Source: a phage. From it: a stretch of 64,000 nucleotides of DNA. Under the pieces are notes generated by a model. It did no database searches, was not told the DNA's origin, and saw only the letters and a program-made list of their open reading frames with translations. Where the stretch lies: the sequence record PZ445429.1, one strand, 5' to 3'. Position numbers and translations under genes: made by a program. Numbering within the stretch: the stretch's first letter is position 1; the number at the start of each line of letters is the position of its first letter. This document shows, in pieces, positions 8,874 through 64,000 of this stretch.

Positions 8874-8971
8874 TTCAAATAGCCCTTCGGGGCTATTATA
8901 TTTAAATTTCATTTGCTTACTGAGTGAAATTCAAATATAATATACTTCTAATTTGACAGAAGGATTTAATA

Positions 8972-9550
8972 ATGACAGCCATAGTAGCATTTAAATATAA
9001 AGATAAAGTATACTTAGCTGGTGATCGTATGGGTTCTAATGGCTATACGAAACTGCTGGTTAAAAATCCGAAAGTATTCAAAATCTCTGATGATTTGTAC
9101 TTCGGATACACTAGTTCCTTCTACATGGGACAATTACTAGAGCATAGCTTTACTGTACCACCACGTTTAGCAGATATTTCTGATGATAAATATTTATATA
9201 CGGAAATAGTACCTAAATTACGTGATATGTTTAACCAGAAAGATTTTGGCGAAAAGAAAAATGAAAAATATGCTGAACCTAATCTGGGACAATTTATTAT
9301 GCTCTACAAAGGAAGAATCTTTATTTTCCAATCTAATGCTTCTATTCTAGAAGTTGAATATGCCGGTGTAGGCTGTGGAGGAGAAGATGTACTTTCCAGT
9401 ATTCGTACAGGTTTAGCTATTGCGGATTGTCGAGCCACAGATTTAGATGTAGATGATATATTTGAAATCATTGATCTGGCTTTTACGCATTGTGCAGATT
9501 ATATGTGTGGTGTATCTTCTCAACATGATGTTTTAGTAATTGGAGAATAA
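8972..9550 (+). CDS. Ntn-hydrolase, HslV/proteasome-beta-like (putative)
   Basis: N-terminal M-TAIVAFKYKDKVYLAGDRMGS parallels HslV TTIVSVRRNGHVVIAGDGQ (Thr1 nucleophile after Met removal); RBS GAAGGA. Confidence 0.4.
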   Translation: MTAIVAFKYKDKVYLAGDRMGSNGYTKLLVKNPKVFKISDDLYFGYTSSFYMGQLLEHSFTVPPRLADISDDKYLYTEIVPKLRDMFNQKDFGEKKNEKYAEPNLGQFIMLYKGRIFIFQSNASILEVEYAGVGCGGEDVLSSIRTGLAIADCRATDLDVDDIFEIIDLAFTHCADYMCGVSSQHDVLVIGE

Positions 9551-9552
9551 AT

Positions 9553-9822
9553 ATGTCTATTCTTTTATCTGCTTTAGAAGCAAAACAAAATACTATTGCT
9601 AGCATTAAAAAGGAAGTAATTGACCTAGAATCACTTATTGCCGTAGAGATTGACAAAGCTATTAAAGATAAAGAATTTAATTGTCACATCCAGGGATTAA
9701 CTGAATACTCAGAAAACGCTAGAAATAGCGTCATGCAAAAACTTAGCAAACTAGGTTATGTTGTAGAAGCTAAGTATGAACAGCGTGAAGGTTTTTGGCT
9801 TGAAATTGATTGGAGCAAATAA
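9553..9822 (+). CDS. hypothetical protein (89 aa)
   Basis: ORF with RBS, no motif recognised. Confidence 0.45.
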   Translation: MSILLSALEAKQNTIASIKKEVIDLESLIAVEIDKAIKDKEFNCHIQGLTEYSENARNSVMQKLSKLGYVVEAKYEQREGFWLEIDWSK

Positions 9823-10298
9823 TGTCGGTTTTCCACATATATACAGATGGTGCATGTAAAGGCAATCCTGGTTTAGGTGCGTGGGGATTCGTTGTCTATA
9901 ATGATAATGATGATCGTATTGGCTCTAAATCTGGCTTCAGCCCTAAAACTACTAATAACGAAATGGAACTTACTGCAATTGTAGAAGTTCTTCGTTGGTC
10001 TACTAAGAAAGATAATCGTCCAGTAATTATCTACACTGATTCTGCTTACTGCAAAAATGGTATGGAAAGCTGGATGTGGTCTTGGCAGAAGAAAGGCTGG
10101 AAGAAGGGAGATGGTGAAACTCCTCTTAATCTAGAACTCTGGCAAGAAGCATTTAAACTAACTCAACAGTATATTAACTTCCATGATACCAATCCAACCT
10201 TTGTTAAGGTTAAAGGTCACTCAGGTATTCGTGGTAATGAAGAAGTTGATGCTCTATGCAATACTGTAATTACTGAGCAAGAACTTGCTGAGATGTAA
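9822..10298 (+). CDS. rnhA: ribonuclease H
   Basis: YTDGACKGNPGLGAWG ... TNNEMELTAIVEVL ... YTDSAYCKNGM ... VKGHSGIRGNEEVDAL matches RNase HI catalytic DEDD pattern; start at ATG 9822 after RBS GGAG. Confidence 0.85.
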   Translation: MSVFHIYTDGACKGNPGLGAWGFVVYNDNDDRIGSKSGFSPKTTNNEMELTAIVEVLRWSTKKDNRPVIIYTDSAYCKNGMESWMWSWQKKGWKKGDGETPLNLELWQEAFKLTQQYINFHDTNPTFVKVKGHSGIRGNEEVDALCNTVITEQELAEM

Positions 10299-10318
10299 TA
10301 AATAATTTAAAAATTCAC

Positions 10319-10347
10319 TTGCTTAAAGCCCTCGAATTTAGTATAAT
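10319..10347 (+). promoter_or_regulatory. early promoter TTGCTT-N17-TATAAT
   Basis: AAAAATTCACTTGCTT ... GTATAATAT. Confidence 0.65.
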
Positions 10348-10374
10348 ATTCGTATTGAAAGTGAGGAGGGCTTT

Positions 10375-10653
10375 ATGCGAATTTACAACTCAAATTCATT
10401 AGGATTTAAACCTTTGAGAAAACGCGCACAATCTCCGCGTCAGATCAGAAAGGCAAATATTGGTGAGCCAGAAACTAGGCTTCCACCACCTCCGGAGCAG
10501 CGTCTAGTTTATCTAGATGAAGAATTAGCCGAAAGGGAACGCAAAGCTCAAGAAGAAATTGAGCGCAAGAAACTGTGTACTGCTCCTGCATATAACAAGG
10601 GTGGTTATCAGTACGTTTCCAGTGAGGAACAAGCTAAGATGATCGGCAGATAA
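10375..10653 (+). CDS. hypothetical protein (92 aa)
   Basis: promoter 10319-10347, RBS GGAGG. Confidence 0.5.
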   Translation: MRIYNSNSLGFKPLRKRAQSPRQIRKANIGEPETRLPPPPEQRLVYLDEELAERERKAQEEIERKKLCTAPAYNKGGYQYVSSEEQAKMIGR

Positions 10654-47609: not shown

Positions 47610-48220
47610 TGTTTACACAACAAACCATTAAAGTAGTAGCAGATCATGAACTCGACACATGGGATTACAGCTTTAAAGATCTGACTGCTACAGTACAGTT
47701 TAAATCTATGCAACTGTCGTTTTTGCACACTGATCTTCAAGGTTGCAAGGAATTTCAGGCTAAGCTCATGAATGCTCGTGCTATCTTTGGCACGGCTCGT
47801 ATCCCGGCTGATAATCTGATTAATACACTAATCGATGCTGGATACAAACTCGTGAAGACTGAGGTGAATCGCCCTAGTACTCCAGTGACTATTCGGGATC
47901 CGTGGCAGTCAGGGCCAATCGCAATGCTGAATAATTCTGATAAAAGATTAATGTCGGATATGCACAATGTTCCTTGTGGTGGCGTGGTAAGCAATACGCA
48001 ATCATATAAGTTTGGGGAAGCATCTAGCGTAGACGAGTGGAATAAAGCTGGCGTTGCAATGATGGGCTTTGCAAAAGATCGCGGAGCACAAGAAGACTCC
48101 GGAGTTTCTAGGAACTCATACACAATTCGTTTGAGCAATCCTAGCAAAGAAGGTGAGCTTGAAGAAATGTTAACGAAAGTATTCGAAGCTATTGATGCAG
48201 ATAAGGCTAGAGGTCGTTAA
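47609..48220 (+). CDS. hypothetical protein (203 aa)
   Basis: coupled ORF. Confidence 0.5.
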   Translation: MFTQQTIKVVADHELDTWDYSFKDLTATVQFKSMQLSFLHTDLQGCKEFQAKLMNARAIFGTARIPADNLINTLIDAGYKLVKTEVNRPSTPVTIRDPWQSGPIAMLNNSDKRLMSDMHNVPCGGVVSNTQSYKFGEASSVDEWNKAGVAMMGFAKDRGAQEDSGVSRNSYTIRLSNPSKEGELEEMLTKVFEAIDADKARGR

Positions 48221-49110
48221 TGGGATTTTATAGTAATAGAAAGCCGAAAGGTGTAGTTGGTAAATTCGCGGTGGAAGAGAGACCTTTTCCACCGGTCGAT
48301 GTAGAGAAACTACGTGAACTTCTAGAAATGCTAGAAGGTTGCCATGAACGTTGTTACTCTGAGCTTTCTTTAAACGAGAAACGTGTTGTTGAGATGTTCT
48401 GTATTCGGTCAGCTAGAACAGTTAGAGGTACTTCTCCAAAAGATGAAGTAAAAGAGTACAGAGTTCTTGTGATGCATGCTTGGGCACAACGTTTTGCAGT
48501 TCATTCACTTCAGGAATGGTTTAATCTTCCAGCATATAAAGATTTCCATGTTTATGAAGATGAAGTTATGAATTATAATGAGTTGTACGGTTTGTCATTT
48601 AAAAAGACAGGCTCACCAATGCATGATGCACTCAACTCATTCCCTGATCATTATCTTCCAGTTCGTGAATACAGAGATCGTGAAGGAAATAAACCTTGCT
48701 TCACTATATGGAATAAGTCTAAGACAATATCTGATCTAGATAATTATTGGTTCCGCACAAAAGAAGGATTCCTAGGAACAGAACCTTTACCTAAGGATCT
48801 CAAGCCTATCCTTCCACCTGTGAAACCTAAGCATGAAGTAACGATTGCTATTAATAGAATAATTCTAGGAGCAGATGATCTTACCAAACAAATCGCCGCA
48901 GTTATTGCAGTTCTGTTTGAAGGTACAAAATCTTCTACACGTTATGAGAAGCTAACTGATAACAAATTGCAGATACCTAACGAGTTGTACGAGAGTTCAT
49001 GTAAGATCTATGATAACTTCAGTAAAGTAGATTACCCTGTGAGATCCCTAGGAGAACTCATGGAGTATGCGGAGATGGGGATGAAAGGAAACCTCATGTT
49101 CGATGAATAA
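48220..49110 (+). CDS. hypothetical protein (296 aa); last early-region gene before repeat field
   Basis: coupled ORF, ATGA overlap with previous. Confidence 0.5.
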   Translation: MGFYSNRKPKGVVGKFAVEERPFPPVDVEKLRELLEMLEGCHERCYSELSLNEKRVVEMFCIRSARTVRGTSPKDEVKEYRVLVMHAWAQRFAVHSLQEWFNLPAYKDFHVYEDEVMNYNELYGLSFKKTGSPMHDALNSFPDHYLPVREYRDREGNKPCFTIWNKSKTISDLDNYWFRTKEGFLGTEPLPKDLKPILPPVKPKHEVTIAINRIILGADDLTKQIAAVIAVLFEGTKSSTRYEKLTDNKLQIPNELYESSCKIYDNFSKVDYPVRSLGELMEYAEMGMKGNLMFDE

Positions 49111-49117
49111 ACTCTAC

Positions 49118-49146
49118 TTGACGTTATGATTTCTGCATGTTATAAT
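49118..49146 (+). promoter_or_regulatory. strong sigma70-type promoter TTGACG-N17-TATAAT with no ORF downstream
   Basis: near-consensus hexamers; next 1.5 kb has no credible ORF. Confidence 0.5.
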
Positions 49147-49505
49147 AACTCTATGAAATAACATAGAATAAAGAGATCCACCCGGATACGGATGGTGGAT
49201 GGGAAACTTCTATTTCCCCCGTAGCTCGTCGGAGGGCTAGGGAAATCTTCAGAAGTTTTGTACCATCTCACGCAATTCGTATCCCAGGGGTGGAACATCT
49301 CTCACAATCCTTGAGGATCTTATACTTAAATTAAAGTTAAAACTTTTGACCACATAATTCACATTCAAGATGATACACTTGTTGCCGCCGCTCTTCCTAG
49401 GATGGCACAACACTTTCTAGTAGACTCCTAAGTTTCTAGGAAAACCCTGTCGTATTTGCCCATGTTATAGGGCAGTTTCTCCTGTTCCTAGAAACTCCAG
49501 CAATA

Positions 49506-49577
49506 GGCGGTTTAATACAGGGCGGTTTAATACAGGGCGGTTTAATACAGGGCGGTTATGGGGAGGGCGGTTATTTC
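49506..49577. repeat. 15-bp tandem direct repeat GGGCGGTTTAATACA x3 plus degenerate copies
   Basis: three exact head-to-tail copies followed by GGGCGGTTATG and GGGAGGGCGGTTAT. Confidence 0.8.
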
Positions 49578-49615
49578 TAGACAACATTTTTCCAAAACAC
49601 ATTTCTGGATTTTAC

Positions 49616-50217
49616 TGTCGGATTTGCACACTATGTTTCTAGAAATTTATGGTCGGATTTGCACATTGATAGGAGTCTCCAAAGTTTTTAGGAACACTGA
49701 AAATAGCAGCATTATTTCGGGCCGAAGGCCCGTATTTGCCTGAGTTTTTAGAGCCACAGGAATTTTCACTTGTCAAGCGATTTTGCCCCATTTTGCTAAT
49801 AAAATTTCGCTTTATCTCCACTAATCTCAATTCTAGCCAAAACATCCCACATTATCCCCAAAAACGCAGCAAACCGGTGCTGAAGCACCACCACAGCTGC
49901 ACCCTCCATAGTTCCTCCAAAAAACCTCGTCGGATTCGCACTTCTCCCCAAACTCACACAATCATACACCCTCTCATCGAAGTCACAAAAATCTTGTCGG
50001 TTTTGCACACCTTAACACTTGTCGTATTTGCACATATTCTAGTAAATCCAGCTGGATTGCATCGCAGTTGTGGATTGCTGGAGTTTTTAGGAAAATTCAT
50101 TGTCGGATTCGCACATATAAAAAATATTTCCCATCGGATTTGCACACTACCAAAAATTGTCGGATTCGCACATGCACACTGGCACGTAATCCGTGGGGGC
50201 AAATGTCGGATTTGCAC
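49616..50217. repeat. iteron array: at least 9 dispersed copies of TGTCGGATT(T/C)GCACA
   Basis: copies near 49616, 49651, 49926, 49994, 50019, 50101, 50132, 50158, 50203, mostly same orientation, irregular spacing. Confidence 0.75.
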
Positions 50218-50259
50218 AAAAGCGCAGGGCAAAAATGAAAATGCCCTGCCTGCCGAAAT

Positions 50260-50440
50260 GCGAATGATAATGAGATTGATTAGCATTTGAGAAGTTGAAT
50301 GCGAATGAGAATGATTCGCGTTTAGAAAGAGGAATGAGAATGGTTATCATTTAGAAAGCGGAATGAGAACAGTTATCATTTATAGAGTTGAATGCGAATG
50401 AGTCGCATAATGAGAATGATTCGCGTTTAGAAATGGAAGT
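50260..50440. repeat. GAATGAGAATG-type direct repeat family
   Basis: TTGAATGCGAATGAG...AATGATTCGCGTTTAGAAA twice and GGAATGAGAA(T/C)(G/A)GTTATCATTTA twice. Confidence 0.7.
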
Positions 50441-50460
50441 GAGAAACACTGTTATTTAAG

Positions 50461-50543
50461 TTATCAACAGGTTTATTAACAGCACGATTTGACTTGACAA
50501 AATCCTAGCGATTTTGAGGCGTTATCAACAGACTTATTAACAG
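50461..50543. promoter_or_regulatory. cluster of four DnaA-box-like 9-mers
   Basis: TTATCAACA x2 and TTATTAACA x2 (1-2 mismatches to TTATCCACA). Confidence 0.4.
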
Positions 50544-50550
50544 GTTATTC

Positions 50551-50570
50551 TACTGTATAAATATACAGTA
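50551..50570. promoter_or_regulatory. LexA (SOS) box, near-consensus
   Basis: TACTGTATAAATATACAGTA (consensus TACTGTATATATATACAGTA, 1 mismatch). Confidence 0.55.
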
Positions 50571-63518: not shown

Positions 63519-64000
63519 ATGGCAAATGATGTATTAGTTCCCGATCTCATGTCTCCTGAGGGCATGGATGTTATTGAAGCCTATTTACAGTGCAGTAGTG
63601 ATGTTCCTGCCGCCGCTCGTAGTCTTGGAATGTCCGAGATTGCATTTCGTGATATAATGAATCGTGGGGAAGTTAAAAACTATCTCAACGATATCTTTAT
63701 GGAAAGTGGCTTCCGTAATCGTGACCGCTTATTCGGAGTTCTTGATGAAGTTATCAAGCGCAAGTTGGAAGAACTCGAAGAAACTGGCATGGGTTCTGAC
63801 CAGGATATCATGGATATTCTCTGGAAGGCGCACAAGATGAAAATGGAAGAAATGAAAATGATGGTAGAACTGGAGAAAGTGAAGGCAGCAGCCCGTACTC
63901 CAGCTAACCAGACTAACATTCAGAATAATATTATTGCTGGAAGTGGTGACGAAAACTATATGAATCTTATTACCGCTCTAGCAGGAGGAGGTAAGAGATA
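63519..64000 (+). CDS. hypothetical protein with N-terminal helix-turn-helix (possible terminase small subunit); 5' part only
   Basis: RBS AAGGAGG then ATG 63519; frame open to window end. Confidence 0.3.

Follow-up and report, generated by a model that had tools for sequence, protein, structure and literature searches.

The stretch of DNA analysed here, called the window throughout, comprises 64,000 nucleotides of phage record PZ445429.1 and is a T5-like phage genome (Demerecviridae, Epseptimavirus-like) that reads in reverse relative to the T5 map. The region of interest matched 465 phage records, nearly all of them Salmonella or Escherichia T5-like Demerecviridae, with vB_EcoS_Ace and STK8t as the nearest (about 98% identity). 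Early genes on the + strand run up to position 49110 and are followed by non-coding DNA and then by the terminal repeat (TR), which carries A2, A1 and dmp. The TR extends from 49751 to about 60044, its outer end having been located by BLAST of the T5 junction. Beyond this point lie genes for a receptor-blocking lipoprotein (Cor/llp), a receptor-binding protein and the terminase small subunit, that is, the right end of the unique region; since these genes follow directly, the TR has been collapsed in the assembly. At the other side of the non-coding DNA, 8 bp past the stop codon of the last early ORF, a near-consensus sigma-70 promoter with a TG extension (TTGACG-17-TATAAT, 49118-49146, + strand) points into the non-coding region. 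Equivalents, followed by hairpins, were seen in T5 and in Klebsiella, Yersinia and Vibrio relatives, and the promoter may drive a conserved non-coding RNA, for which Rfam gave no match.

The non-coding DNA corresponds to Repeat Region 3 of T5, which has been described as highly repetitive, extending 270 bp past the left terminal repeat and debated as the site of an injection stop signal (bioRxiv 10.1101/866236). The window aligned with T5 9194-10409, and the array that is the subject of this work with approximately T5 10310-10354, between copies 8 and 9 of direct repeat D (DRD). As in T5, the region is non-coding, separates the pre-early genes of the TR from the first early operon and straddles the inner TR boundary; its flanking genes and its DRD repeats align with those of T5, and the DRD family, TGTCGGATTTGCACA, is present. 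Ten repeats of this type, all on the + strand, were found from 49448 to 50218, with starts that include 49448, 49616, 49651 and, for the last one, 50204. An earlier note on this DNA had called them iterons; they are the DRD repeats annotated in T5 at the terminal-repeat junction. By alignment with T5, the repeat to the left of the array (49448-49462) corresponds to DRD copy 9, and the two repeats between the array and the TR boundary (49616-49665) to copies 8 and 7. The left flank of the array, TTCCTAGAAACTCCAGCAAT (49485-49504, + strand), forms a 20-nt inverted repeat with a second arm inside the TR at 50074-50093. The arms are 95% complementary, are separated by 569 nt and bracket the TR boundary, the left arm abutting the array; this arm can additionally pair with 49431-49442.

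Further repeats were observed around this field. DRD-like 15-mers are present at 47715-47729 (2 mismatches) and 47952-47966 (1 mismatch), in early coding sequence, on the + strand and in the orientation of the field. Six copies of a 29-35-bp repeat (AATGAGAATGATT...TTTAGAAAG) occupy 50234-50458 and are followed at 50460-50555 by paired GTTATCAACAG/TTATTAACAG boxes; judged from sequence, these two sets seem to be the counterparts of the T5 DRC/DRE repeats and of the DnaA-type box pairs that have been put forward as the injection stop signal. The DRD core TT(T/C)GCACA is kept as far as the Vibrio T5-like phages (TAGGTTTCGCACA, 3.2 copies at 8913-8954 of Vibrio phage D414). The core TTCGCAC resembles box I of the herpesvirus (HSV) UL9 origin (GTTCGCAC). 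UL9-like binding of the DRD repeats was considered and rejected: the 970-aa helicase of a T5-like phage gave a weak match to PF02399 (E = 5.6e-5), covering only positions 48-197 of the 820-position profile.

Inside the DRD field, a pattern search found three exact head-to-tail copies of the 15-bp unit GGCGGTTTAATACAG (unit A) on the + strand, starting at 49506, 49521 and 49536 (49506-20, 49521-35 and 49536-50). Unit B, GGCGGTTATGGGGAG (49551-49565), a conserved penultimate box, and a terminal box, GGCGGTTATTTCTAG (49566-49580), the most widely conserved element of the array, follow on the same strand and in the same 15-bp phase, and the exact string GGGCGGTTAT is present in both. The earlier note had described a perfect 15-bp triple repeat, GGGCGGTTTAATACA, next to the iteron field. 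The triple repeat is real; in the register given there, however, two copies are exact and the first starts with A (49505), and the array lies inside the TGTCGGATTTGCACA-type field (49448 to 50218) rather than beside it. Tandem Repeats Finder reported 49506-49557 with a period of 15, 3.5 copies, 100% matches and a score of 104. The sole higher score in the window, 112, belonged to a period-29 array at 50303-50400 with 79% matches, and all remaining repeats with 100% matches had 6-9-bp units in 2-2.5 copies and scores of at most 36, so that the claimed scarcity of exact tandem repeats elsewhere in the window holds. The window contains five instances of GGGCGGTT, of which the array contributes four; 0.70 would be expected, and five was reached in none of 100 shuffles. 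The proposed search for the unit elsewhere in the genome thus returned a single GGGCGGTT outside the array in the window, while in the complete 113,314-bp genome of A148 the string GGGCGGTTAT was confined to the array (0.12 expected by chance), which makes one locus per genome.

The inner TR boundary was placed at 49750/49751 (...CCTGAGTTTTTA/GAGCCACAGG...) by homology to T5, Sw2 and phiR2-01. The motif at the boundary, ...CCTGAGTTTTT(A/G)/GA(G/T)CCACA..., marks the identical site in these three phages, whose TR ends there at T5 10139 (record annotation), Sw2 9816 (PhageTerm) and phiR2-01 9901, and the record of vB_EcoS_I14 stops exactly at this site. The last GGCGGTT box starts 184-185 bp outside the boundary in T5, Sw2 and phiR2-01; in the window it starts (49566) 185 bp from 49750/49751, an end placed by homology. 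The array is therefore single-copy DNA and, from the accepted structure of T5 DNA, we infer that in a concatemer it lies just past the cut that makes the right genome end. Two properties of pac/cos-type sites were thus found here, proximity to a physical genome end, by homology with the same three phages, and uniqueness, in the complete A148 genome and in the window. A conserved GC hairpin, GGGCC-GAA-GGCCC (49719-49731, + strand), annotated as a terminator in Sw2, stands 20 bp before the boundary. In Klebsiella phage Sugarland (locus 2139) and Proteus phage Stubb (locus 6416), the PhageTerm-annotated TR ends fall at ...A/GCGCAGG. This is the sequence of a major (7.9%) single-strand nick annotated in T5, and not the boundary motif of T5, Sw2 and phiR2-01, which Sugarland also keeps; in these two records a nick may have been mistaken for the terminus.

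We compared the array across about 50 T5-like loci from GenBank phages, IMG/VR and metagenomes. It was present in all of them, every one ending in ...(A/G/T)GGGAG GGCGGTT ATTT. Three chained boxes were the commonest state (36/50), and the loci scored as two-box mostly had a decayed GGCCGGTT box upstream. T5 itself has three boxes, GGCGGTTTAATACAG GGCGGTTATAGGGAG GGCGGTTATTTCTAG, and no perfect repeat. Unit A (GGCGGTT[T]AATA[C/T]AG) is 14 bp long in many phages and 15 bp in others, and its copy number ranges from one to four, with one copy in Sw2 and T5, two in locus L110, three in the window and vB_EcoS_I14 and four in the metagenome contig L085. Unit B (GGCGGTTATAGGGAG) ranges from one to three copies, being doubled in locus L007 and DT57C and tripled in A148 and GEC_vB_N7. 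Ace, STK8t and Sepoy have flanks 100% identical to those of the window and are 30 bp shorter, leaving one unit A. The copy-number comparison among related isolates that the earlier note had called for therefore gave three copies in the window against one in these phages, and its suggestion of a length-variable locus is borne out by relatives with one, two, three or four copies of unit A, or with one to three of unit B. Such variation among isolates is expected of a phase-variable contingency locus, in which a change of length switches a gene; the tract, however, is covered by no conserved ORF and flanked by no promoter hexamers, as a tract in a reading frame or a promoter spacer would be.

The three perfect copies of the window are absent from its nearest relatives and are therefore evolutionarily young. 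Because phages with 100% identical flanks carry a single unit A, the perfection of the repeat reflects youth and not constraint: two of the three copies are a recent lineage-specific expansion inside an older conserved array. In several lineages (TrudiGerster, locus L107, phiR2-01 and Kenya-K44) an insertion of about 40 nt separates box 1 from box 2; it carries an 8-bp stem (e.g. CTGTCATT...AATGACAG) and could be a small mobile hairpin element. Two of the records used here have unexpected labels. vB_EcoS_I14 (PP892525.1) is classed as Felixounavirus yet has a T5-like junction, and A148 (MG065642.1) is labelled 'Campylobacter phage' yet is an Epseptimavirus; both are likely mislabelled or mixed.

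Conservation was measured on a MAFFT alignment of 42 unique sequences, as the fraction of them that has the base of the window at a given position. The final pair of boxes (AGGGCGGTTAT.GGGAGGGCGGTTATTT) hardly varies among the T5-like loci studied. It opens a highly conserved non-coding block (49549-49830) that also takes in DRD copies 8 and 7, the hairpin, the TR boundary and 80 bp of the TR. Mean conservation in successive segments of this block was 0.956 (the last two boxes, 49549-81; 95.6%), 0.741, 0.948 (the stretch up to the TR boundary, 49698-49750; 94.8%) and 0.917 (the first 80 bp inside the TR; 91.7%). The same measure gave 50.5% for a comparison segment at 49236-49335 and 9.3% for the extra unit A copies of the window (49521-48), and the adjacent protein (48220-49110) is 43.9% identical to its T5 counterpart. 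Degenerate copies do follow the perfect ones, as had been noted, but the emphasis has to be reversed: the 'degenerate' pair is the constrained core (about 96%), whereas the perfect copies, found in about 9% of sequences, are young and dispensable.

The boxes extend to other genera. Klebsiella Sugarlandvirus has two boxes 29 bp apart, the second being GGGGAGGGCGGTTATTT, and the terminal box is also found in Yersinia phiR2-01. In the Proteus Novosibvirus phage Stubb, whose A1 protein shows 42% identity, CAGGGCGGTTATAG is followed 15 nt on by GGGGGGTT in otherwise unalignable DNA. The conserved hairpin/TTGTCAAGC block has the box on one side in Stubb and on the other in T5, so that neither the distance of the box from the presumed cut nor the side on which it lies is universal. 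In the Vibrio T5-like phage the GGCGGTT box is absent, and the junction region has a different 16-bp tandem repeat, AAAAACAGACTACCTCA, in 2.7 copies. A second two-box copy was found inside the TR in NR01, SHSML-45 and loci L083, L092 and L108, where it precedes a TTGCAC-17-TATAAT promoter by 30 nt; this promoter drives an HNH endonuclease gene that is inserted in the DRD field (at about 50050-50130 of the window). At the left terminus the GGCGGTT box is not conserved, T5 having one at +37 and the window none. A motif common to both termini was accordingly discarded: T5 has TAACCGCC 37 bp inside its left end where the window has GGGGGATTATTAG, and the T5 match was treated as chance.

Several simple accounts of the array failed. 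Coding was rejected, as the ORF at 49558-49743 starts at an ATG that is absent in T5 and as units of 14 or 15 bp and 40-nt insertions break the frame. Folding of 49480-49600 as DNA was no better than that of shuffled sequences (z-score -0.63) and Rfam gave no relevant match for the array region, so the array does not look like a structured RNA or a cruciform. The neighbouring ORFs were rejected as sources of a box-binding protein, having neither a Pfam domain nor a functional annotation in PHROGs. By eye, the GGCGGTT box mismatches the DnaA-box consensus of bioRxiv 10.1101/866236 and is not Chi, and the KOPS-like GGGGAGGG of the window reads AGGGAGGG in T5. When viral contigs were scanned with a loose three-box pattern, most hits had no relation to the array and were probably coding repeats whose period is 15 nt; retrieval of loci by protein from viral contigs yielded a single one.

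The above findings suggested that the array is probably a conserved cis-acting protein-binding array on which a young slippage expansion of perfect copies has been superimposed. The GGCGGTT boxes would serve in cis, at a single locus, as head-to-tail sites for a sequence-specific DNA-binding protein; extra copies would arise by replication slippage or by unequal recombination between 15-bp units, and would be tolerated in that they only add sites. We favour this reading because of the invariant 7-11-bp core, the head-to-tail layout, the restriction to one locus per genome, the tolerance of added units and the presence of a different array in a distant lineage; the 16-bp repeat of the Vibrio junction is what would be expected if a site and its binder co-evolve. 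The suggestion of a protein-binding array in the earlier note is thus plausible on the evidence of sequence, with the amendment that the conserved part is the last two boxes and not the perfect copies. Given the 14- or 15-bp spacing of box 1 and the 40-nt insertion before box 2, strict phasing would apply to the last two boxes only.

Which process such an array would serve is a more tentative matter. The array may be a signal by which the concatemer is recognised when the right genome end, 185 bp away, is cut; we lean towards this role, knowing that it could easily be wrong. The last two boxes form the edge of a highly conserved block that spans some 280 bp with the TR boundary at its centre, their distance to that boundary is fixed, and terminase recognition sites typically have repeated boxes close to the cut. 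Three observations weigh against packaging. The box is unchanged in the Klebsiella and Proteus phages, whose terminase small subunit shows only about 51% and 48% identity, respectively, the arrangement in Stubb differs, and the second two-box copy near the HNH promoter points instead to a role in transcription. The terminase small-subunit gene (63520-64000, + strand, truncated where the window stops; the A148 orthologue matches phrog_3802 with E = 3.5e-90) is a candidate partner only; its ORF is named 'putative SciB' in some records, SciB being the T5 nick-less locus. More speculatively, the boxes, DRD repeats and hairpin of the 280-bp block might together form a concatemer signal that is bound by the terminase small subunit and sets the inner end of the TR, a proposal to which we give somewhat less credence. 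If it were true, box number would tune concatemer recognition.

The rival that survives best, although we consider it unlikely, makes the boxes an operator or upstream element bound by a phage or host transcription regulator that controls transcription into or out of the TR junction, for example from the conserved promoter-like block at 49346-49374 or from a leftward promoter. That block precedes the array by about 130 bp, a strong conserved promoter is present at 49118-49146, and the second two-box copy of NR01, SHSML-45, L083, L092 and L108 stands 30 nt upstream of the -35 hexamer of the HNH promoter. The HNH cassette may, however, merely have carried a piece of the array along; no promoter was predicted on either strand at a similar distance from the primary array, and a single box locus in a whole genome would be unusual for a temporal regulator.

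Slightly harder to credit is a part in two-step DNA transfer, in which the boxes would assist the arrest or the resumption of injection, being the first DNA to follow in the second step or else the DNA that occupies the tail or portal during the pause. The array does lie within the repeat region that has been debated as the injection stop signal, and in T5 (~10310-10354) it is about 700 bp past the estimated shear point at 9618. For a tail built of 40 rings, each roughly 40 A (PMC11313276), this is, by our own arithmetic, about the length of DNA that spans tail, connector and tip. This argument from distance is numerology, though, its error being several hundred bp, and the boxes are outside the DNA present in the cell during the pause.

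A third rival, which we regard as very improbable, is that the array is an accessory site of a replication origin made of DRD 'iterons', DnaA boxes and AT-rich DNA. The ingredients are at hand, in the form of at least ten DRD repeats in one orientation, paired DnaA-type boxes nearby (50460-50543) and an AT-rich stretch at about 49320-49345. Replication iterons are nevertheless about 17-22 bp long, helically phased and accompanied by an initiator gene and an AT-rich unwinding element, whereas the array has a period of 14-15 bp and a core of 7-11 bp, and the neighbouring ORFs lack an initiator-like domain. Davison places the T5 origins near the genome centre, and no evidence was found that the DRD field is a replication origin.

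A functionless minisatellite, that is, a slippage-prone tract kept by mutation pressure alone, would account for the recurrent changes in copy number and for the expansion of different units in different lineages, but neutral tracts would decay, whereas across 42 unique sequences the last two boxes show about 96% conservation, and other genera retain them despite unalignable flanks, which leaves this reading with very little probability. Least credible of all is an assembly or sequencing artefact, which the earlier note would have accepted had the repeat been missing or unstructured in other assemblies: the full 151-bp context of the window with its 3x allele is in no record of a 50,697-phage collection, but the 45-bp tract is shorter than ordinary reads, the 3x allele recurs with different flanks in the independent assembly of vB_EcoS_I14, and 2x and 4x alleles exist in L110 and L085.

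These results bear on the stop and restart of T5 DNA transfer and on the creation and duplication of the 10-kb TR, as the cis-acting DNA for both presumably lies within this junction. The box offers a mutable handle: it is present once in each genome, its distance to the genome end is fixed, and it is conserved from Escherichia and Salmonella phages to those of Klebsiella and Proteus. Natural alleles with 2-6 boxes exist for comparison. The tract is also a potential typing marker; near-identical isolates differ in it, so T5-like assemblies will legitimately disagree here.

The array shares its locus with T5 Repeat Region 3, the LTR/unique junction with its DRD, DRA, DRC and DRE repeats and palindromes. 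It is a further repeat family in an already known junction, the region and the DRD repeats having been known before, and is set apart by deep conservation, occurrence at a single locus and natural copy-number alleles. The GGCGGTT boxes are unannotated in the T5 record AY587007 and go without mention in the main text of bioRxiv 10.1101/866236. A full-text literature search with the box and unit sequences returned unrelated primer sequences only; older T5 papers were outside its scope, and an earlier description is possible. With the iterons of plasmids and phages the array shares direct repeats in one orientation, a non-coding location and variable copy number, and it differs from them in its period of 14-15 bp, its core of 7-11 bp and a setting without an adjacent initiator gene or mapped origin.

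Other parallels are found at genome ends. Dunn and Studier reportedly described, in 1983, arrays of short repeats (SRL/SRR) directly internal to the terminal repetition of T7 and T3, and these arrays have been discussed in connection with concatemer processing. In both cases short direct repeats are in unique DNA beside a direct TR and flank the TR in the concatemer. The T7 unit, however, is a heptamer present in many copies in arrays on both sides of a 160-bp repeat, whereas the array described here was seen at a single flank of a repeat of about 10 kb, at 185 bp from its boundary, and no homology connects the two systems. Repeated boxes also make up terminase sites such as the R1-R3 sites of lambda cosB, the hexamers of P1 pac, and pacL and pacR of SPP1. 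T5 differs from these systems in having two different cuts about 10 kb apart and, in Stubb, a box that is placed differently, and the binding of a small subunit is hypothetical here; what it has in common with them is a unique locus with short repeated boxes at most about 200 bp from the cut, and a conserved block of about 280 bp around that cut.
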